From IMG/VR virus record IMGVR_UViG_2695420600_000009: a stretch of DNA of 12,619 bases; one strand, given 5' to 3'. The notes below the pieces were generated by a model that made no database searches, was not told where the DNA came from, and worked only from the letters and a program-made list of their open reading frames with translations. Positions 827-11,867 of this stretch are shown one piece after another; positions within the stretch are counted from its first letter, which is position 1, and each line of letters begins with the position of its first letter. Origin of the DNA: a virus. Taxonomy: Duplodnaviria > Heunggongvirae > Uroviricota > Caudoviricetes. The position numbers were made by a program, and so were the translations under genes.

Positions 827-2680
827 TTATGATGATGCCGGTGCATTTATCTCCAGCACCAGACTTTCTATCTCAACGCCATACGCTGCATTTTTGGTAA
901 TATCCGTCAGCGTCAGCGCATTCAGCCCCAGTGTCAGACTGTCTTTTATGACCTGGAATGCCGGGCCAGCCACTCCATTCAGTTTCGGAGTAACCGTGGC
1001 ACTGCCGGCGGTGAACACCAGCTCCAGCGTCAGCCAGTCGTTACTGTAATTCCCGAACTCGCCCAACTTTGTGTTTCCTGCTTTCTTGTGATGCATCAGA
1101 TTCAGTTTGCCGTCTGTGGTCTGGGTGAAGAACGACATCAGGAACGGGTTACCAGTCCCGGTCATCGCCACGACGTCAGGTAACGCTACATCGGTATACA
1201 GATAAATTCCCAGACCGAACTGGTTGTTGGTCAGTGCGCCTGACAGTCGAAACTTACAGCTCAGTCTGCCACCCCGTGTCAGCAGGGAGACTGCGTCATC
1301 CACCGGGCGCGTCAGGGACCAGGCTTTATTGCTCTGCTTGGTGATCTTAAATACACCATCTGACAACTGAACTCCGCCATTCTTAATGCTCCAGCCCTGC
1401 GCAGCAGCGTCTCCGGCTGTCGGCAACAGGGAGATTGTGCGTATGGATGCATCTTCAGACGGCCCCGATGGCGTGTCGCCGCCGGGCGAGGGTTTGATTT
1501 CCGGTGCCTTACCACTAATGAAGGCTAAGGTGCGACCGGCTACGTTCAGAATAGCAGTTGCCATACGATCGGGAATAATGCCACGACGCGCCCATGAGCT
1601 GAAATGCGTCGGGCGATTTGATGATACCCAGTTTTTGTTCGTTCGGGATGCCGAACCGTAATAACCAGACCCGGCAATATCAGGATCTTCTGACGGGTTG
1701 TTTGTCGGTGTATTAACTCCGCTACCATCGGTCATAAAGGGAACAAAATAAATCTGCTGGGATTCTTTACCTTTATATGCACCATATACCACTTCATATT
1801 GCGTACCGTGTTCTTGTTTCCACGCGTATGTCGTGTCGCCACAAATCCAGGGGACTGATGCCGGACTTCCACCGTGACACTGCGCCGCCAGCCCGGCAAG
1901 GTCAGCACGGAACTGCTGTACCATTGCAAGAAATGCTGCTGGCTGCTGGGCGTAACTGGCATTCGTCATATCGAATTCCCCCTGCATCCAGCATATCGCC
2001 AGCAAAACGTTTTTCGGGTTTTTCTGCAATGCTGCCTTCGTGCGGAAAAGCAGATCCTGATATAACGGCTTACCCACTCCCCAGCGAGCCGAATCCTGAC
2101 TGGCCCCCGTGGACTCGCTGAATGTCCCCTCCGTGCCCTGGGTGAATGCCGAACCACCACAACAGCATGGTACCAGCAGGATCCCCGCATTATTAGGGAT
2201 ATACGGAAGCAGTTTTTTGGCAATATGTAAGCCCTGTCCGACACAGCCGTACTGCCCTTTGCTCAGGTCAGCCCGGGGATGGTTAATCGTACTCATATCC
2301 TGAACATCATGCAGACAATGGTCAGCAGGAATGATGTCGTTAAATACGCATACTTCACCACCGGGAGTCACTGTGTTACGACGGGCCAGTTGCTTAATGC
2401 GCGGATGGGGCGCATCGTATGAATCCGGAAGCGGAAGACCTTCACCGTAAGCCATGGCATTGGATTGCCCGGCCAGTACGATGACGTAGTACCACTCCGG
2501 CTCAGTTGCACCACTGACGACCACATCACCTTCTGCTGCAATCGCCTGCATCAGGGTATAAGGGGTTATGGCCACCGGACTACCAAACGGCTGCCAGCCC
2601 TCCTTCAGTTTTTGTGTCAGTCGTTTCGCAAGGTCTGACGGCGATGCCGCCCTGACCACGTCATAGTGTTTAAATGCCAT
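827..2680 (-). CDS. nanS: prophage sialate (9-O-acetyl-N-acetylneuraminate) O-acetylesterase, NanS-p / YjhS-like, with N-terminal DUF1737-like region
   Basis: 617-aa ORF with SD GGGAGGA upstream of the ATG at 2680. The N-terminus MAFKHYDVVRAASPSDLAKRL and the GQSN motif (VLAGQSNAMAYGEG) fit the SGNH/DUF303 esterase family that EHEC lambdoid prophages carry downstream of the stx position. Recognised from memory of the family, not searched. Confidence 0.8.
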   Translation of the reverse strand: MAFKHYDVVRAASPSDLAKRLTQKLKEGWQPFGSPVAITPYTLMQAIAAEGDVVVSGATEPEWYYVIVLAGQSNAMAYGEGLPLPDSYDAPHPRIKQLARRNTVTPGGEVCVFNDIIPADHCLHDVQDMSTINHPRADLSKGQYGCVGQGLHIAKKLLPYIPNNAGILLVPCCCGGSAFTQGTEGTFSESTGASQDSARWGVGKPLYQDLLFRTKAALQKNPKNVLLAICWMQGEFDMTNASYAQQPAAFLAMVQQFRADLAGLAAQCHGGSPASVPWICGDTTYAWKQEHGTQYEVVYGAYKGKESQQIYFVPFMTDGSGVNTPTNNPSEDPDIAGSGYYGSASRTNKNWVSSNRPTHFSSWARRGIIPDRMATAILNVAGRTLAFISGKAPEIKPSPGGDTPSGPSEDASIRTISLLPTAGDAAAQGWSIKNGGVQLSDGVFKITKQSNKAWSLTRPVDDAVSLLTRGGRLSCKFRLSGALTNNQFGLGIYLYTDVALPDVVAMTGTGNPFLMSFFTQTTDGKLNLMHHKKAGNTKLGEFGNYSNDWLTLELVFTAGSATVTPKLNGVAGPAFQVIKDSLTLGLNALTLTDITKNAAYGVEIESLVLEINAPASS

Positions 2681-2873
2681 GAATCCTCCCGGCCGGGATA
2701 ATATTGTGAGTAAAATAAGGAGCGGGCTGAAGTCCGGAAGTTACAGGACAATGGCAGAAGAGAGACGACAGCCCGCAATTCGAAAAAGACCGCGCAGTTG
2801 CGCAGAGTGATTACTATGGGGTATTATTCGCCAGCTGAAATATTACTTCACGTTTTATTGTTTATTCCTTGCC

Positions 2874-2902
2874 GCCCGCGTCTCCCAGCGCGGGCTTTTT
2901 TT
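2874..2902 (+). terminator. plus-strand intrinsic terminator-like hairpin inside repeat A (second copy at 4700..4728)
   Basis: GCCCGCG-TCTCCCAG-CGCGGGC followed by TTTTTTT on the plus strand. Confidence 0.5.
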
Positions 2903-2910
2903 GCCCACAA

Positions 2911-2931
2911 GAAAACCCCTCCGGAGAGGGG
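2911..2931 (-). terminator. minus-strand terminator-like hairpin T1 in repeat A (copy at 4737..4757; diverged sub-repeat version at 3397..3418)
   Basis: Minus strand CCCCTC-TCCG-GAGGGG followed by TTTTCTTG. Confidence 0.45.
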
Positions 2932-3179
2932 CTAAAGCCGCGTATCTGTATCATCATGCACATGGTGCCGGGTGCCTCCCGGTGAGTTCAGCCCGGTGCC
3001 ACTAAACCCGCGTCATTCTCGTTTTGATAATCAGAGATTATACCGTCACCAGTCGCCCCTCCGCTCAGGGGGATTCACCATGCGAAATTTTTTTAACAAA
3101 TGCCCAGTCTGACAGGCAACTGTCAACTTACTGAATTGTGAGCAACATAGCATTTAACGGGGAACCTGTTTTCTGCAGT

Positions 3180-3206
3180 AAAAAGGCCCACCGGAGCGGA
3201 TGGGCC
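3180..3206 (-). terminator. minus-strand terminator-like hairpin T2 in repeat A (copy at 5006..5032)
   Basis: Minus strand GGCCCA-TCCGCTCCGG-TGGGCC followed by TTTTTACTG. Confidence 0.45.
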
Positions 3207-3811
3207 TGGAAGGATAGCGGTCATGTGATGCCGGTTTCCCGGTAACTCAGCACCGGTATCTGAGTCAACGTTTTCTCTACTGGGTCATTTCCGATACGCC
3301 CTGCCTGCTGACAGGCTTTCATCACATCTGAAAATATAGCACCCTGACTGATACTGTAGTACCTAAGGTTCCAGAAACTGTGATGTATCCGGCACAGAAA
3401 AGCCCCTCCGGAGAGGGCTGGAGAGTGGCGCTATGTGCCATTGCATGATGCCGGGTGCCTCCCGGTGAATTCAGTACCAGCACCTGAATCCGCGATTATC
3501 CCATATACCTACTCGCTGATTGCCCCTCCGCACAGGGGGATTCACCATGCCAGTTTCTTTTAACAAACTCCCCGCAAACCAGACAACAGTCAACCGCCTG
3601 AATTGTGAAGTATTTAAAAATTTCTCCCGCTAACTGATACCCGGCTAACAGTCTGGCGTTTTCTTTTTCAGCAACGGGAAAGCAACAACCACCACACCCG
3701 CCACCAGCACACCGTCAGCCAGCACTGACATTATCCGGCTGCTGCAATGCCATTCACAAAAACAGTAAGCAATCACTTTTTACCGTAACAGGTGATAATC
3801 CAGATATGTAT

Positions 3812-4138
3812 CTACCCCAGATGAGTAATCCGAAGTTCATCCATACCACAGGTCCTGGCTATTCTGTTGTACTCCTGAACAAGAGCAAATAATTCTGAAT
3901 TAGCAACCATGAACTCATCGCAAACCCTCTGTATAGCATCACTATTCAGAATAATAACGTCTCTTCCCGAAAGACGATCAGGAGTACAGAACAAAACTGT
4001 CAAACGGCTGAAGGCCTTTGCTCGTGCTGCATTGACTATATCAATACGCTGCCTAAGGATGAAACACCCCGACGCCTCATCAATATTCACTCTACCCACA
4101 CCATATGAATGATAAATATTTAATGCTGAAAAAACCAT
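3812..4138 (-). CDS. hypothetical protein in AT-rich cargo segment (108 aa from first ATG; ORF track extends to a TTG at 4165)
   Basis: A 354-nt open frame in clearly AT-rich DNA, where stop codons are frequent, argues for real coding. It is on the late-transcribed strand. No convincing SD and no family I can recognise. An antisense 67-aa ORF (3909..4112) overlaps it. Confidence 0.35.
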   Translation of the reverse strand: MVFSALNIYHSYGVGRVNIDEASGCFILRQRIDIVNAARAKAFSRLTVLFCTPDRLSGRDVIILNSDAIQRVCDEFMVANSELFALVQEYNRIARTCGMDELRITHLG

Positions 4139-4275
4139 TAGACCGTATAACAAACACTCAATCAATACTTAACAGAACTTTTATTTTTGACAAACATAAA
4201 ATATTTTCAACAATATCCTGAGCCAGGTATATTTCAGTATAAGGCTCTGCCGGAAGGAATCTGGAAGAATGAATA

Positions 4276-4528: not shown

Positions 4529-4567
4529 GGGAGCAGAATAATAACGGTCCGTAATTAATTCCGCAAT

Positions 4568-4681
4568 AAAAAACCCGCTCGGCGGCGGGTTGTAGAAACT
4601 CTTCTAACGTCAGGCATAAAACGCCCATAGTTATGACGAATTTACCACAGATTCCGGAAAAATCAACCTAGTTACCTTTTT
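4568..4681 (-). repeat. repeat B copy 1: duplicated Q 3' tail plus terminator module (remnant; second copy 7299..7413 is attached to the intact Q gene)
   Basis: About 114 bp identical, bar one or two bases, to 7299..7413. It encodes the last ~17 codons of Q (KVTRLIFPESVVNSS stop) followed by the terminator hairpin at 4568..4591, with no upstream Q coding sequence. An N at 4682 marks the junction with repeat A copy 2. Confidence 0.8.
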
Positions 4682-4682
4682 N

Positions 4683-5450
4683 ATTGTTTATTCCTTGCCG
4701 CCCGCGTCTCCCAGCGCGGGCTTTTTTTGCCCACAAGAAAACCCCTCCGGAGAGGGGCTAAAGCCGCGTATCTGTATCATCATGCACATGGTGCCGGGTG
4801 CCTCCCGGTGAGTTCAGCCCGGTGCCACTAAACCCGCGTCATTCTCGTTTTGATAATCAGAGATTATACCGTCACCAGTCGCCCCTCCGCTCAGGGGGAT
4901 TCACCATGCGAAATTTTTTTAACAAATGCCCAGTCTGACAGGCAACTGTCAACTTACTGAATTGTGAGCAACATAGCATTTAACGGGGAACCTGTTTTCT
5001 GCAGTAAAAAGGCCCACCGGAGCGGATGGGCCTGGAAGGATAGCGGTCATGTGATGCCGGTTTCCCGGTAACTCAGCACCGGTATCTGAGTCAACGTTTT
5101 CTCTACTGGGTCATTTCCGATACGCCCTGCCTGCTGACAGGCTTTCATCACATCTGAAAATATAGCACCCTGACTGATACTGTAGTACCTAAGGTTCCAG
5201 AAACTGTGATGTATCCGGCACAGAAAAGCCCCTCCGGAGAGGGCTGGAGAGTGGCGCTATGTGCCATTGCATGATGCCGGGTGCCTCCCGGTGAATTCAG
5301 TACCAGCACCTGAATCCGCGATTATCCCATATACCTACTCGCTGATTGCCCCTCCGCACAGGGGGATTCACCATGCCAGTTTCTTTTAACAAACTCCCCG
5401 CAAAACAGACAACTGTCAACCGTCTGAATTGTGAGACATTTAAAAAAAAG
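4683..5450. repeat. repeat A copy 2 (see 2853..3620)
   Basis: Near-identical to copy 1 over ~770 bp. ORF-track entries 5297..5530 and 5346..5552 in this region run into the tRNA genes and are rejected. Confidence 0.9.
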
Positions 5451-5771: not shown

Positions 5772-6830
5772 TCATCCGTTCTGGCTGACTAAATCCTGTA
5801 CTTCCCGAACCGTCTGCTCAAAACGTTCAGTCTCCAGCTCAACGCCAATTGCACGACGCCCGAGCGCCAGTGCCGCTTTCACTGTCGAACCCAACCCCAT
5901 GAAAAAATCTGCAATCAGGTCACCCGGACGACTGCTAGCGCTGATTATCTGCTGCAGCATTTCTGCCGGTTTTTCGCACGGATGTTTCCCGGGATAGAAC
6001 TGCACCGGTTTATGCGTCCACACATCGGTATACGGCACCTGCACCGTCACGCCAAAATACCGCCGCAGATGTTTATATTCACTCAGCAGCTCCGCATACT
6101 GCCGGTTCAGTGAGGTATACGTATCCACCAGCTGGTGGTGGAGCTTTTCCAGTTCACCACGCCGATGCTTCTCTTCTGCCACCCGGGCAAACAGCGCCTG
6201 TAATTTCAGATAATCGCTTTCATTCGGCAACTGCCACTGACCGGCACTGAACCAGTGCGACACCATGTTTTTCTTTCCTGTGGCATCTGCAATCTGTTTT
6301 GCCGTTATCCCCAGGGCAGCTCGCGCATCACGAAAGTAAGAAATCAGCGGGGCCATCACATGCTGTTTCAGTGCACTGCCCTTCGCCGCATACCCGGCAT
6401 CTTTCGGACGATACGGCCCCTGATAATGTTCCGCGAACAGAATGCGCTCTGTGGCGGGGAAATACGCCCGCAGGCTTTCCTTGTTGCATCCGTTCCAGCG
6501 TCCGGACGGCTTCGCCCAGATAATATGGTTCAGCACACTGAAGCGTTCACGCATCATGATTTCGATATCAGATGCCAGGCGATGACCACAGAACAGGTAA
6601 AGACTTCCGGCAGGTTTCAGCACCCGCCAGAACTGCGCCAGACACTGGTCCAGCCACTTCAGGTAATCATCGTCGCCCTTCCACTGGTTATCCCAGCCCT
6701 CAGGCTTCACTTTAAAGTACGGCGGGTCCGTGACTATCAGGTCAACAGAATTTTCGGGTAACGACCGGATAAATTCCAGGCAGTCGGCGTTGATTAACTC
6801 ACAACTGGATATTTTTACAGTATTAAGCAT
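5772..6830 (-). CDS. DNA methyltransferase, beta-class amino-MTase (N6-adenine or N4-cytosine), orphan (no adjacent endonuclease gene)
   Basis: 352-aa ORF with catalytic motif DPPY near the N-terminus (LIVTDPPYF) and a SAM-binding FxGxG-like motif near the C-terminus (DFFMGLGST). This motif order is typical of beta-class MTases. Sits between Q and the tRNA cluster. Confidence 0.85.
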   Translation of the reverse strand: MLNTVKISSCELINADCLEFIRSLPENSVDLIVTDPPYFKVKPEGWDNQWKGDDDYLKWLDQCLAQFWRVLKPAGSLYLFCGHRLASDIEIMMRERFSVLNHIIWAKPSGRWNGCNKESLRAYFPATERILFAEHYQGPYRPKDAGYAAKGSALKQHVMAPLISYFRDARAALGITAKQIADATGKKNMVSHWFSAGQWQLPNESDYLKLQALFARVAEEKHRRGELEKLHHQLVDTYTSLNRQYAELLSEYKHLRRYFGVTVQVPYTDVWTHKPVQFYPGKHPCEKPAEMLQQIISASSRPGDLIADFFMGLGSTVKAALALGRRAIGVELETERFEQTVREVQDLVSQNG

Positions 6831-7178: not shown

Positions 7179-7298
7179 GTCTTTTCCTTTTCCGGTTAAC
7201 GTGACACACCAATAACTCTTGTCGAAAAAGCCAGCAAGCTGAAAGACAGGTATTCACCGCCACCAGCGCGTTTACTGTACTGACGCGATTTCAGTCAT

Positions 7299-7322
7299 AA
7301 AAAACCCGCTCGGCGGCGGGTT
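7299..7322 (-). terminator. intrinsic terminator immediately downstream of Q (candidate tR')
   Basis: Minus strand CCCGC-CGCCGA-GCGGG followed by TTTTTTAT, ~40 nt after the Q stop codon. Duplicated at 4568..4591. Confidence 0.6.
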
Positions 7323-7361
7323 GTAGAAACTCTTCTAACGTCAGGCATAAAACGCCCATCG

Positions 7362-8216
7362 TTATGACGAATTTACCACAGATTCCGGAAAAATCAACCT
7401 AGTTACCTTTTTTAACTGCCGCTCAGCCCATGCTTCTTCAATATCAAACCGGGTCACCAGCGCATCATAGAATTTCTTAACTGTTTTTTCCCATGACGCG
7501 CGTGTTATCTGGTTTGTCACCTCGCATATAGCATTAAATGCCTCCGTTGATGGTAGTCTTTCATAGCCACGACCACCACAACGCTGGCAGTCTCTGATAA
7601 CAGGCATACCACGTTTTACCGACTCTTCACGATGAATGGCGACACCACGCCCACGGCAATCCTTACAGGCGGTGGAAACCTCACCCTTTCCGCCACACTC
7701 CGGACAGGCAACTTTTACCACCTCCCTGACTTTTTTCCATTCTTCCCAGTAAGACGGATACACACCTTTCGTACACTTTGCCCATACCGGCGGCTTACCA
7801 TCCGGATACTGGATCTTGTTTGTAAAAACCTCGCTTTCAATAAATTTTTTTCCGTGACAGCAGGGGCACTGTTTTTTGCTCGCCGCGCTACGGGCATAAT
7901 CTTCAAACGCATACGAAGCCATAATACGCATCACTGCCGGTTTTATTTCTGCCGGGAGTTTTCTTAACGCCGCCACGCGATCACACCGACTGAGTGCATA
8001 TTCTGTCAGCAATTCTGTTGCCCGCTCTCTGTCATTCATACTAATGCCCATTTTCCCAAGGAACGCAGAAACCCCCATCTCAGCCCGATTCTGTGTCATG
8101 CCCTGCGCGGCCATCACATCAGTGATACTCAGCGCATCTTTCGACGTTGAGGCCGATGCATCAGTCAGGCCGGGGGATTTTGGGGAGTAGTATTTCGGTA
8201 AATCTTCCAGTTTCAT
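7362..8216 (-). CDS. Q: Q-family late-gene antiterminator with four CxxCxG(xG) zinc-finger-like motifs
   Basis: 284-aa ORF in the canonical position: downstream of rusA with ATGA start/stop overlap, upstream of terminator, tRNAs and lysis genes. The N-terminal region resembles Qin-type Q (quuQ-like) proteins as I recall them. Cys motifs CPCCHGKK, CPECGGKG, CKDCRGRG, CQRCGGRG. Confidence 0.7.
   Translation of the reverse strand: MKLEDLPKYYSPKSPGLTDASASTSKDALSITDVMAAQGMTQNRAEMGVSAFLGKMGISMNDRERATELLTEYALSRCDRVAALRKLPAEIKPAVMRIMASYAFEDYARSAASKKQCPCCHGKKFIESEVFTNKIQYPDGKPPVWAKCTKGVYPSYWEEWKKVREVVKVACPECGGKGEVSTACKDCRGRGVAIHREESVKRGMPVIRDCQRCGGRGYERLPSTEAFNAICEVTNQITRASWEKTVKKFYDALVTRFDIEEAWAERQLKKVTRLIFPESVVNSS
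7370..7397 (-). promoter_or_regulatory. candidate late promoter pR' overlapping the last codons of Q
   Basis: Minus strand TTGATT (-35), 16-bp spacer, TAAATT (-10), located just upstream of the terminator at 7299..7322. Hexamer match only; no experimental support. Same motifs in repeat B copy 1 at 4639..4666. Confidence 0.3.
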
Positions 8217-9653: not shown

Positions 9654-9932
9654 TTACCTCCAGATCCGTTGCTGGAATGTGCGGGACGGACGCGTTGGCC
9701 GTTCGGAGTAAGGGAGCCTGACGGAGATTATCCAGTGACGGTAGTCGAGGCTAAGGGCTTTTTTAACCTCGCATCCGCGCCTGCGGTAACACTGAATGAG
9801 CCATTCGGCCTGTTCTTCAGTGCATGGGGGATGCTGGTACCAATCAGATTTAAATGCGTGAGAGCGCCGCCCGTGCCTGCTGGCAAAGACGGCTGAATTA
9901 TCAGAATTGTGTAGTCTGGAATTTTGCGCCAT
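9654..9932 (-). CDS. hypothetical prophage protein (92 aa)
   Basis: ATG at 9932 with SD GGAGAAAG. The same RBS-plus-start context is duplicated at 10628. No family recognised. Confidence 0.45.
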   Translation of the reverse strand: MAQNSRLHNSDNSAVFASRHGRRSHAFKSDWYQHPPCTEEQAEWLIQCYRRRGCEVKKALSLDYRHWIISVRLPYSERPTRPSRTFQQRIWR

Positions 9933-9998
9933 CGGCTTTCTCCGGTGGCACAGTGTTACTCAACAGGGGTTCAGCCCTGCGCTGAATTGTAGATGAAT

Positions 9999-10259
9999 TC
10001 ACTCATCTTCAAAAGCAGAAAAACCAGCCTTAATCCCAGCTTCTTTCAGAGACGGCAACGATGTGACAAATTCATTTGCACGCGAAATAAAACCATCCGT
10101 CACAAGCCCATCCACAAAATGAATTAACGCAGCTCCACTCTTCCTTTGTTGAGACTGTAAACATTTAATACGGCAGTGGCTGACAATAGCGCCATTCTCA
10201 ACGCGCACAGTATAGAGGCCATCTTCACTAAAAATTTCACGTAATTCTTCGATTTTCAT
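9999..10259 (-). CDS. hypothetical protein, paralog 1 of a tandemly duplicated gene (86 aa from ATG; track shows a TTG one codon upstream)
   Basis: MKIEELREIFSEDGLYTVRVENGAIVSHCRIKCLQSQQRKSGA is ~85% identical over the first ~75 residues to the ORF at 10667..10954. SD GGAAGGA. Family not recognised. Confidence 0.6.
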   Translation of the reverse strand: MKIEELREIFSEDGLYTVRVENGAIVSHCRIKCLQSQQRKSGAALIHFVDGLVTDGFISRANEFVTSLPSLKEAGIKAGFSAFEDE

Positions 10260-10343
10260 CAACAGAATCCTTCCAGATAAATAGCACTCCCCTGTTCGGG
10301 GTCCATCCCTCTTCTCCCTGCGCGCTACTTAAGTGAGTCGATT

Positions 10344-10374
10344 NNNNNNNNNNNNNNNNNNNNNNNNNNNNNNN
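10344..10374. other. assembly gap (31 N)
   Basis: Run of N in the sequence. It interrupts the gene starting at 10628 and the upstream region of paralog 1. Confidence 1.
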
Positions 10375-10628
10375 CACAGGTAATCAACGAAACCGGACAC
10401 CAGTTTTCGTTCGCGAGGCGTGATCGCCCCACCGACCGGAGTCCAGTAATCGAAACCCAGTTGCAGGAGTTTGAAAAAACGCTTGTGGAATGCGTAGTTA
10501 CACACACGCTTAAAGTCTGCGTGTATCCACTCACCTATTTTGATTTGATGCAGAAAATCGCAACTCTCCGGCGTCGCCGGGAGAAGTAATCCGGAAGAGG
10601 TTTGTTTGACCAGTTGTATATGTGCCAT
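10375..10628 (-). CDS. hypothetical prophage protein, 3' end lost in the gap
   Basis: ATG at 10628 in the same duplicated RBS context as 9932; MAHIQLVKQTSSGLLLPATPESCDFLHQIKIGEWIHADFKRVCNYAFHKRFFKLLQLGFDYWTPVGGAITPRERKLVSGFVDYL, then N. The track ORF 10329..10670 reads through the Ns. Confidence 0.45.
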
Positions 10629-10666
10629 CGGCTTTCTCCGGTGGCACGGTGTTACACAGCAGGAGT

Positions 10667-10954
10667 TCAATCCTGCTCAAGATTGTAGATGAGTTTATTC
10701 TTCAGCAAAAGCAGAAAACCAGCCTTAAAACCAATCTCTTTCAAAACCCGTAATGATGTGACAAATTCGTCCTCACGCAAAATAAAACCGTCCGTCAGAA
10801 GTCCATTACAAAAATAAAATAACACAGCACCGCTCTTCCTTTGTTGAGATTGCAAACATCTAATGCGGCAATGGCTGACAATCGCTCCATTCTCAACGCG
10901 CACAGCATAGAGGCCATTTTCACTAAAAATTTCACGCAATTCTTCGATTTTCAT
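10667..10954 (-). CDS. hypothetical protein, paralog 2 of the tandemly duplicated gene (95 aa)
   Basis: ATG at 10954 with SD GGAAGGA. Upstream on the minus strand is TTGATT-16 bp-TAGAAT, a plausible sigma-70 promoter. The C-terminus diverges from paralog 1 after KAGF. Confidence 0.6.
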   Translation of the reverse strand: MKIEELREIFSENGLYAVRVENGAIVSHCRIRCLQSQQRKSGAVLFYFCNGLLTDGFILREDEFVTSLRVLKEIGFKAGFLLLLKNKLIYNLEQD

Positions 10955-11077
10955 CTTCAGAATCCTTCCAGATAAATAGCTCTCCCCTGTTCGGGGTCCA
11001 TCCCTCTTCTCCCTGCGCGCTACTTAAGTGAGTCGATTCTATCTGCGAAGGTGCGCGAATCAAATTCACCGGAAATA

Positions 11078-11126
11078 AACAACAAAAAACCCGCCGAAAC
11101 GCTGAGAGATCACAGCGATGGGCGGG
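11078..11126 (-). terminator. terminator-like stem-loop after the truncated hok copy
   Basis: Minus strand CCCGCC ... GGCGGG stem enclosing an inner CGCTG/CAGCG stem, followed by TTTTTTGTTGTTTATTT. Confidence 0.45.
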
Positions 11127-11203
11127 TTAAGTGCGGGTGCGTTGAGGATGCCTGACACATCAGAGGTGGGCGGGGATGGGATCAGCTCCCCGCCCGGTCA
11201 CTC

Positions 11204-11303
11204 TTACTTCCTGGATTCGTAGTCTACGAAGACAGCGACCTCCGTCTGGCCGGTTCGGATTCGTACCTCACAGAGGTCTTTCCTCGTTACCAGTGCCGTC
11301 ACT
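11204..11303 (-). pseudogene. truncated hok copy (3' ~33 codons plus 3' UTR), tandem to the intact gene
   Basis: Minus strand reads ...TRKDLCEVRIRTGQTEVAVFVDYESRK stop, homologous to the C-terminal half of the hok ORF at 11421..11576. The copy begins at an N (11304) directly after the intact gene's terminator. The 3' UTR (11127..11203) is homologous to 11353..11420. Confidence 0.7.
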
Positions 11304-11319
11304 NAACTTCAAACGCGTT

Positions 11320-11351
11320 GAAAATAAAAACAAAAACCCGCCGAAGCGGGT
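11320..11351 (-). terminator. intrinsic terminator of the hok transcript
   Basis: Minus strand CCCGC-TTCGG-GCGGG followed by TTTTTGTTTTTATTTTC, ~70-100 nt downstream of the hok stop. Confidence 0.6.
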
Positions 11352-11420
11352 TAAGTGTGGGTGCATTGAGGATGCCTGACCCATCAGAGGTGGCGAGGGA
11401 TTTCTCCCCCGCCTGGTCTC

Positions 11421-11576
11421 TTACTCCTCAGGTTCGTAAGCTGTGAAGACAGCGACCTCCGTCTGGCCGGTTCGAATTCGTACCTCGCAGAGGTCTTTCC
11501 TCGTTACCAGTGCCGTCACTATGACGGTTAAACAGATGACGATCAGGGCGATTAACATCGCCTTTTGCTGCTTCAT
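11421..11576 (-). CDS. hokD: Hok/Gef-family type I toxin (51 aa), HokD/RelF-like
   Basis: MKQQKAMLIALIVICLTVIVTALVTRKDLCEVRIRTGQTEVAVFTAYEPEE matches the HokD (RelF) sequence as I recall it. SD GGAGAAGCAGG upstream. The track ORF (11421..11633) also contains an in-frame upstream ATG with its own SD (mok-like leader). No relBE genes precede it here. Confidence 0.9.
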   Translation of the reverse strand: MKQQKAMLIALIVICLTVIVTALVTRKDLCEVRIRTGQTEVAVFTAYEPEE

Positions 11577-11867
11577 AGCCTGCTTCTCCTTGCCTTTCGG
11601 CACGTAAGAGGCTAACCTAGATTTGCCGTTCATAGATTGAGCCTCAGATTAATGTTAAGCGTCTTGCCGGACGCGTAATGTTAACTGGGGCTTTTCTCTA
11701 TCTGCCTTTTGGTGTTCATGCCTGAGACAGATAGCCTCAAGCACCCGCTGCAATTCTACTTAACTCTCCTTTTCCCGCAAACCGTTTTTATCCCCAGCGG
11801 CAAATCGAATACACCACCAGCGCCACCGCCATCGCAATTCCTACCGTTGTTAATGCTTCAGGCCAGG

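Follow-up and report, generated by a model that had tools for sequence, protein, structure and literature searches.

STnc100 (Rfam family RF02076) is an already catalogued small RNA (sRNA) of lambda-like prophages and is among the most frequently annotated sRNAs of bacterial genomes (PMC9029176). EDL933 carries 11 STnc100 copies, all of them transcribed and one (STnc100_4) confirmed by Northern blot (PMC5331693), Shiga toxin 2 (Stx2) phages carry one copy ~75 nucleotides (nt) after stx2B (PMC12370729), and binding of RpoD has been described at the Salmonella STnc100 promoters (PMC10794520). Here we report that the repeated units on the minus strand of a 12,619-nt stretch of viral DNA (IMG/VR record IMGVR_UViG_2695420600_000009; the whole stretch is called the window below) are members of the STnc100 gene family, and that their 5' domain contains a covarying pseudoknot.

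Among the relatives of STnc100, EcOnc27/sRNA103 was detected by Hfq crosslinking and analysis of cDNA (CRAC) and by Northern blot, and together with the anti-sRNA AsxR it forms a convergent "dyad"; such dyads lie between pR' and the lysis genes in at least eight Sakai prophages (PMC4104026, PMC7873438). EcOnc27 overlaps STnc100 only partly, according to a machine-learning study of O157:H7 published in 2025, in which the strongest predictors of haemolytic uraemic syndrome (HUS) were variants in the STnc100 stretch (PMC12711010). PasD1 and PasD2 of enteropathogenic Escherichia coli (EPEC), 172-173 nt in length, were detected by Northern blot and by ligating and sequencing RNAs that interact (RIL-seq; PMC8550237), the 5' end of PasD2 being estimated from RNA-seq coverage and Northern blot size. 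Their seed maps just upstream of the terminator, and a 2026 preprint describes them as structural relatives of STnc100. The copies of the Pas genes lie far apart on the chromosome and not in tandem (2026 Pas paper, which covers Pas genes and not the arrangement of STnc100 units).

STnc100-family units on the minus strand

A sequence-only reading of this DNA had described two related sub-repeats, roughly 70% identical and four copies in all, and had suggested that selection maintains in them a structured small RNA, read from the minus strand and ending at a terminator hairpin (T1), to be checked by an Rfam scan and by a search for covariation in the stems. The two sub-repeats (2906..3130 and 3395..3610) are indeed related, at 66% identity, whereas shuffled controls average 50% and do not exceed 55%. 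The Rfam scan returned four full-length minus-strand matches to RF02076, whose gathering score is 47 bits, with scores of 122-161 bits: 3112..2903 and 4938..4729 with 161 bits each, 5405..5216 with 123.6 bits and 3579..3390 with 122.5 bits. Together with the covariation described below, these matches bear out the structured minus-strand RNA. The units belong to an already known family that is recognisable by a standard Rfam scan.

Below, the units of the first repeat are called b, c and a in the order of transcription, and those of the second b', c' and a'. Units a, a', b and b' exceed the 47-bit score of the family, whereas c and c' fall below it, appearing only at relaxed Rfam thresholds as weak RF02076 matches of 30.1 bits (3351..3178 and 5177..5004). 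The four copies reported earlier are therefore present, but a diverged third unit in each repeat had been overlooked, so that the total is six. Units a and b and their copies share with STnc100 the helices, the strand relative to the late operon and the prophage location, and differ from the family in no respect; unit c, in contrast, reaches only 30 bits.

Unit c nonetheless retains every helix and the pseudoknot through compensated changes, and its minimum-energy fold recovers all helices (z = -2.7). R1, a covariance model of the 5' domain built in this analysis, gives it 53 bits, but unit c was among the sequences used for training; for an independent unit of c type, in phage PhiR5_2, the score is 36.8 bits. 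Of 5,426 complete E. coli genomes, 671 (12%) have unit c with its flanks, unannotated and in two variants at >=99% and ~86% identity; the unit c of E. coli ATCC 11775 is 100% identical.

Riboswitch, ribozyme and protein-binding families gave no Rfam match for the units. A tRNA-like element, which the cloverleaf-like topology had suggested, was rejected: neither ARAGORN nor the Rfam tRNA model makes any call beyond the five genuine tRNA genes.

The pseudoknotted 5' domain

Relatives were collected by a gapped-pattern scan of IMG/VR viral contigs, which yielded 120 loci with 58 distinct 5' domains; a 14-base pattern, CATGGTGAATCCNCC, searched in genome contigs gave chance matches in unrelated phyla only. 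The domain of 105-135 nt is closed by helix P1, in which GCAUGGUG pairs with CACCAUGC, and its 5' end is therefore base-paired. P2 consists of CCCC(U)/(A)GGGG and is followed by a variable insert of 14-46 nt; P3 has 8-9 bp, and P4 reads CCGGG-AGGCA-CCCGG.

Across relatives these helices are maintained by compensatory changes, with 95-96% of cells paired in the consensus fold. When 35 domains are aligned with MAFFT, pairing holds for 95% of cells, as opposed to 42-49% after the partners are slid, and both sides vary in seven of the eight P3 pairs. An alignment based on R1 (74 hits, 52 distinct) has 20 of 26 helix pairs changing on both sides and a helix covariation score of 0.362, compared with 0.146 in shuffled alignments, none of 500 shuffles reaching the observed value. 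This second alignment is fitted to the helices of the model, and the MAFFT result is therefore the fairer one for P3 and the outer part of P1. R1 also recovers members outside the search pattern, namely PasD2 (38.7 bits), the c-like unit of PhiR5_2 and extra units in several loci.

Beyond the helices, the strand of 6-9 nt immediately after P2 is complementary to the P3 loop, giving a J2/3:L3 pseudoknot whose two sides change together from class to class: AUCAGC:GCUGAU, CUGGUG:CACCGG, ACUGGC:GCCAGU, AAUGAC:GUCAUU, ACCAGUC:GACUGGU, ACUGGAUA:UAUCCAGU and UAUCAGUAC:GUACUGAUA, with UAUCGG:CCGGUG in unit c and AAUGAUC:GAUCAUU in PasD2. Because the class ACUGGUG is one column out of register in the MAFFT alignment, the pseudoknot was tested by permutation of cognate and non-cognate pairs and by the model-based alignment. 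The complementary run between strand and loop averages 6.4 nt in cognate and 4.3 nt in non-cognate combinations, and only one of 20,000 permutations reaches the observed mean. In the R1-based alignment, which is not fitted to the pseudoknot because R1 was built without its pairs, all seven pseudoknot pairs change on both sides, 79% of cells are paired despite one class that lies a column out of register, and the covariation score is 0.564 against 0.266 when shuffled (0/500) and at most 0.105 when slid. The covariation check was thus strongly positive for both the helices and the 7-bp pseudoknot.

No pseudoknot is displayed in the cmscan structure line for RF02076. In the literature consulted we found no mention of the pseudoknot, of tandem arrays or of unit c, and the 2026 Pas preprint mentions neither pseudoknot, promoter nor tandem arrays. 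As secondary findings, the covarying pseudoknot, the sub-threshold unit c, the tandem arrays and an architecture of chassis plus module may be new.

An open reading frame (ORF) on the RNA strand, which would make this a dual-function sRNA starting at the AUG in the 3' strand of P1 with GGAGG in P4, was considered and rejected: it spans 2-49 codons of unrelated sequence and reads through the terminator, and the ATG is missing in 14 of 136 units.

Predicted promoters, 3' modules and a proposed mode of action

The 5' end of PasD2 (NC_011601:741157) coincides with the G of GCAUGGUG. Upstream of this position, 41 distinct upstream sequences have in common the block TTTGTTAAAA(A/G), which stands 7-12 nt upstream of GCAUGG, ends 6-7 nt before its G and is likely, judged by its motifs, to be the extended -10 element (TGnTAAAAA) of a sigma-70 promoter that has TTGYCT at a distance of 18 nt upstream. 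PasD belongs to a second class of promoters, reading TTGAYT-18-TAAAAA. Transcription of the window units would accordingly start at ~3083 (a), ~3550 (b) and ~3327 (c). If the PasD2 5' end, which places the start at GCAUGG, applies here as well, the first ~29 positions of the Rfam model would be promoter and not RNA. The repeats extend further than the 2906..3130 and 3395..3610 first assigned to them, the conserved stretch reaching upstream to ~3145 and 3612; this extension would likewise be promoter rather than RNA.

Terminators are dense in this region, with 10 terminator-like sites between 2700 and 3800 where 1.2 would be expected, and a linker of ~25 nt precedes each terminator hairpin. The 3' parts behave as exchangeable modules, in that one 5' domain occurs with different 3' modules and vice versa, including canonical STnc100 5' domains joined to a PasD-like 3' module. 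Arrays are also recurrent. The b-c-a triplet is found again in phage PhiR5_2 and several IMG/VR contigs, tandem arrays of three or four units occur in other loci (L127 2326..3350, L212 5850..6817 and L139 7458..8032, all on the minus strand), and pseudoknot classes differ within single arrays of other viral contigs.

We put at about 0.8 the probability that each unit is an independently transcribed minus-strand sRNA gene of the STnc100 family, with a structured 5' domain and a 3' seed and terminator, whose product acts in trans. Promoter conservation and the PasD2 5' end suggest that transcription would proceed from the extended -10 promoter TGnTAAAAA, starting at the G of GCAUGGUG. The first 105-135 nt fold, as the covariation shows, into the compact, P1-closed domain with P2, P3, P4 and the pseudoknot, and are followed by a single-stranded linker of ~25 nt, the intrinsic terminator hairpin recognised in the sequence and a U-tail. 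By analogy with PasD and EcOnc27, the linker would be the seed and the tail an Hfq site, and the RNA of 150-180 nt would pair in trans with host and prophage mRNAs with the assistance of Hfq, as CRAC and RIL-seq suggest for the relatives. A trans-acting base-pairing sRNA is the most likely function because the relatives EcOnc27/sRNA103 and PasD1/2 are expressed and Hfq-associated. The 5' domain may be a module for stability or scaffolding. In EPEC, PasD1/2 rank with the most abundant sRNAs (mean counts ~8,650 and ~11,000) and their levels hold in an hfq deletion (log2 fold change -0.18 and +0.55), in the same experiment in which PasA, PasB, PasC, MgrR and McaS all drop; this fits a stabilising role of the 5' domain without proving it. 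The observed combinations suggest that 3' modules may be swapped between 5' domains by recombination at the invariant CACCGGGAGGCACCCGGCACCAUG.

More tentatively, and with a chance slightly below even, the 5' domain of STnc100, EcOnc27 and PasD could be an autonomous pseudoknotted module with a function of its own, a prophage chassis deployed in arrays of 2-4 genes with swapped 3' modules. That function would be, for example, Hfq-independent stabilisation or the binding of a specific partner.

Several observations weigh against the proposal of a trans-acting sRNA or against parts of it. Expression, 5' and 3' ends, Hfq binding and targets of the window copies are inferred from the relatives. 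The U-tails of units a and b (UUUUCUU, UUUUCUG) are interrupted and short, weak candidates for a 3' site of the classical Hfq kind, and the -35 elements are poor, with 4/6 matches. A further block, TCACAATTCAG-N4-TTGACA, which precedes units a and b as well as many relatives, contains a perfectly conserved TTGACA that lies 25 nt from the -10 element, too far to serve it; the block is a candidate for a second promoter or a regulator site. As the search pattern fixed part of P1 and P2, variation in these helices comes only from the extra hits found by the model. Single-sequence folding does not discriminate (z = -1.3, -0.4 and -1.4 for unit a, unit b and the plus strand, respectively), so that only the comparative data are informative for structure. 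Finally, P4 and the junction J1/2 are near-invariant beyond what pairing requires, an excess of conservation that hints at a specific partner and is unaccounted for by the idea of a stability module.

The last of these points leads to the possibility that the pseudoknotted 5' domain is itself the functional part, a module that binds protein, RNA or a ligand (as decoy, sponge or sensor), with pairing by the 3' linker secondary or absent. P4, J1/2 (AAUC) and the junction to P1 remain near-invariant across otherwise divergent classes, even with unrelated promoters, and the free swapping of 3' modules and the Hfq-independent abundance of PasD agree with such a role. We nevertheless hold it to be unlikely: PasD is without P4 and yet functional, Hfq-associated, equipped with a mapped 3' seed and credited with many RIL-seq targets, and the units match no riboswitch, ribozyme or protein-binding family and have no known partner. 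A mainly cis-acting role, in which stacked terminators would insulate the esterase and lysis genes in lysogens and the domains would be processing or stability elements of the Q-antiterminated transcript, would explain why the units are always oriented with the late transcript, always lie between moron and esterase/lysis genes, and place three to four consecutive terminators in each locus. The conserved promoter block at each unit speaks against it, as does the accumulation of the relatives as discrete RNAs in uninduced lysogens, where they form Hfq-bound chimeras with distant mRNAs; insulation, moreover, needs no covarying pseudoknotted domain, and we regard this role as rather improbable.

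The remaining alternatives stem from the sequence-only reading itself. It had seen a perfect TATAAT at 3042..3037 (GATAAT in unit b) as the possible start of a shorter RNA of ~110 nt ending at T1. Both hexamers exist, and in unit a the TATAAT lies ~105 nt upstream of the terminator, a distance to which the partial overlap of EcOnc27 with STnc100 (PMC12711010) could be added in support; but they fall inside the variable insert of the RNA, and the TATAAT is not the promoter. TATAAT occurs in only three of the 58 distinct domains and GATAAT in 16, in an insert that varies from 14 to 46 nt, and in unit a it is part of a local hairpin, AUAAUC-UCU-GAUUAU. An RNA starting there would lose three elements that covary with partners further downstream (the 5' strand of P1, P2 and the pseudoknot strand), and the -35 element missed at this place is absent because the conserved promoter (TTGYCT, 18 nt, TGnTAAAAA) lies ~50 nt further upstream. 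The short RNA is accordingly very improbable. A unit of pR'/tR' type for Q-dependent antitermination would agree with the presence of short terminated transcription units in the lambdoid late region but is hardly tenable, since the canonical TTGATT-16-TAAATT with tR' sits directly after Q, the units lie 1.8-4.4 kb from Q, and in Stx phages STnc100 is downstream of stx and not at pR'.

Lambdoid phages also make short terminated transcripts in their late region, the lambda 6S RNA and StxS; these begin at pR', immediately behind Q, and require the Q-binding and pause elements. Their counterpart in the window is separate from the units (7393..7296), and would, by its sequence, yield a StxS-like short transcript of ~70 nt.

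On the plus strand, the same reading had proposed a hairpin sequestering a Shine-Dalgarno sequence ahead of a small ORF. The motif GCCCCTCCGCTCAGGGGGATTCACCATG is conserved, AGGGGGA does lie 8 nt upstream of an ATG (3080 and 3547, opening frames of 10 and 28 codons) in all four copies, and the hairpin is real as a sequence; what fails is its interpretation, since the hairpin is the complement of P2 and the ATG that of CAU in P1, so that the minus-strand RNA explains both. Among relatives the ORF is conserved in neither presence, length nor sequence: its length varies between 2 and >81 codons, with the frame often extending into antisense tRNA genes, the ATG is absent in 14 units, and the complement of the promoter block TTTGTTAAAA accounts for the conserved "FNK" residues. 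A plus-strand translational unit can practically be dismissed.

Prophage setting and the stx2B neighbourhood

The window corresponds, on its minus strand, to the late-regulatory region of an E. coli prophage of lambdoid type (Pfam, Rfam, ARAGORN), with the order hok/sok, DUF968 protein, RusA, Q, DNA methylase, tRNA genes, repeat region, esterase and holin (Table 1), and parts of it are found in 3,219 of the 5,426 complete E. coli genomes. The units occupy the "moron" slot, with pR' and the tRNA genes on one side and the nanS-p esterase and lysis genes on the other, and lie on the late-operon strand, as expected of STnc100. Phages Stx2_95, PhiR5_2 and 933W have a matching layout. In the Stx2a phage Stx2_95, which shares the backbone, stx2A and stx2B lie between the tRNA genes and the esterase, with a single STnc100 directly after stx2B; 933W has the same arrangement (STnc100 at 207.7 bits), followed immediately by a convergent AsxR. 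No stx gene is present in the window prophage, where a tandem set of three family members (b, c, a) occurs twice.

Table 1. Features of the window and their coordinates
Feature	Position	Strand	Basis or remark
Unit a, STnc100-family sRNA gene	2906..3083	-	RF02076 161 bits; R1 102 bits over 3083..2960
Unit a 5' domain	3083..2960	-	P1 GCAUGGUG/CACCAUG(U), P2, pseudoknot CUGGUG:CACCGG, P3, P4
Unit a linker	2959..2934	-	
Unit a terminator hairpin	2933..2914	-	followed by U-tail; terminator scan
Unit a promoter region	3084..3145	-	TG 3098..3097, -10 TAAAAA 3095..3090, -35-like TTGCCT 18 nt upstream
Unit c, diverged third family member	3178..3327	-	Rfam 30.1 bits; R1 53 bits
Unit c 5' domain	3327..3223	-	P1 AUGUGAUG/CAUCACAU compensated; P2 GCCUG/CAGGC; P4 CCGG/CCGG
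Unit c terminator	3207..3184	-	terminator scan
Unit c putative extended -10 TGCTATATT	3341..3333	-	
Unit b, STnc100-family sRNA gene	3393..3550	-	RF02076 122.5 bits; R1 109 bits
Unit b 5' domain	3550..3443	-	pseudoknot AUCAGC:GCUGGU
Unit b linker	3442..3420	-	
Unit b terminator hairpin	3419..3401	-	terminator scan
Unit b promoter TG-T-TAAAAG	3565..3557	-	-10 at 3562..3557
Conserved block TCACAATTCAG-N4-TTGACA	3122..3140 and 3589..3607	-	upstream of units a, b and many relatives
Unit a second copy (a')	4732..4909	-	RF02076 161 bits over 4938..4729; identical to first
Unit c second copy (c')	5004..5153	-	Rfam 30.1 bits over 5177..5004; R1 5153..5049
Unit b second copy (b')	5219..5376	-	RF02076 123.6 bits over 5405..5216; R1 5376..5269
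Convergent sRNA-like element, 54 nt	2849..2902	+	terminator 2874..2895 and seven-T run; faces unit a
Convergent element copy	4679..4728	+	without first 4 nt and upstream promoter
SASA/DUF1737 sialate esterase (nanS-p), 617 amino acids	2680..827	-	
P21-type holin	after esterase	-	
DUF3927-type small membrane ORF, 43 amino acids	3645..3776	-	directly upstream of unit b
117-amino-acid ORF	3812..4165	-	no Pfam match; precedes DUF3927-type ORF
Duplicate of pR'/tR'	4565..4662	-	repeat comparison
tRNA-Met(CAT)/Arg/Arg genes	between DNA methylase and repeat region	-	also given as tRNA-Ile2/Arg
N6/N4 DNA methylase	6830..5772	-	
pR' TTGATT-16-TAAATT with tR' 7322..7303	7296..7393	-	directly after Q; terminator scan, sequence
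Antiterminator Q gene	8216..7362	-	Pfam Antiterm Q match
hok/sok type I toxin-antitoxin locus	11421..11746	-	Rfam sok 112 bits at 11746..11571
HOK_GEF ORF of hok/sok locus	11633..11421	-	Pfam

Unit a is the counterpart of EcOnc27/sRNA103, the Hfq-bound sRNA downstream of stx2B in Sakai Sp5 and EDL933 933W. With the locus downstream of stx2B in Stx2_95 it has in common the promoter, the pseudoknot class ACUGGUG and a similar 3' module, and the layout with a convergent partner is likewise the same; the window differs in having no stx upstream, three tandem members instead of one and a partner whose sequence is unlike AsxR. That partner, a terminator-bearing element opposite unit a, stands at the relative place of AsxR in 933W and is a neighbouring gene, not one of the units. 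Its identity as AsxR, suspected from position, was rejected: models RF02703 and RF02702 (AsxR/AgvB) gave no match at E<=10, whereas the AsxR of 933W, as positive control, scored 88 bits and differs in sequence. The sequence of the convergent element also follows STnc100 in Stx2_95, and it resembles the EPEC RIL-seq sRNA candidate E2348C_1409.E2348C_1408.IGR.

PasD1/PasD2 of EPEC E2348/69, homologues of EcOnc13, share with the units P1, P2, P3, a pseudoknot (AAUGAUC:GAUCAUU), the 5' end at GCAUGGUG and a synteny of DUF3927 gene, sRNA and esterase. They differ in lacking P4, in scoring 41.4 bits, below the Rfam gathering score, and in a longer 3' module with the seed UGUGAG; this module is absent from the window, its Northern-probe sequence CCTTGTGAGTTCTGGCTGCGCAT having no match there at <=3 mismatches. 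In E2348/69 a DUF3927-type ORF likewise lies directly upstream of PasD2.

Infernal-based annotators already call STnc100, which occurs in E. coli genomes by the thousand and in Stx phages by the hundred, and the family is the immediate downstream neighbour of stx2B. Of the HUS-predictive variants (PMC12711010), a SNP 90 nt and a T deletion 103 nt after stx2B seem to be located on TTTGTTAAAAAAATTTCG (Stx2_95, L244 ~2544..2558), which, judged from coordinates that may be a base or two off, appears to be the predicted extended -10 element and discriminator of the STnc100 gene, outside the RNA. With the start at GCAUGG, these variants would therefore lie in the promoter rather than in the RNA. The covarying pseudoknot, together with the architecture of a chassis with swappable seeds, provides a structural hypothesis for a very abundant prophage RNA.

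The second set of units lies 1826 nt from the first. The two copies of unit a are identical, those of unit b agree at 211 of 216 positions, and the copies of the encompassing repeat A are 97% identical overall. Repeat A begins inside the convergent element, so that the second copy of this element is without its first 4 nt and promoter. Downstream of the first sRNA cluster, the segment copied at 4681..4559 comprises pR'/tR' and the last 51 nt of Q, and an ambiguous base (n) at 4683 stands exactly at the junction of that cluster with the duplicated Q-end/pR' fragment. The junction around 4683 was contiguous in none of the 5,426 complete E. coli genomes searched, and the flanking halves look like two prophage layouts that differ in whether the DUF3927 gene is present. 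The duplication may therefore be a chimeric assembly or a rare recombinant, and given the ambiguous base and the absence of the junction from the genomes, the count of six copies may partly reflect a chimeric assembly.

Further diverged direct repeats are present upstream of the Q region (9925..11520), where 10020-10319 matches 10715-11014 (86%), 11122-11177 matches 11346-11401 (89%) and 11201-11303 matches 11418-11520 (89%).

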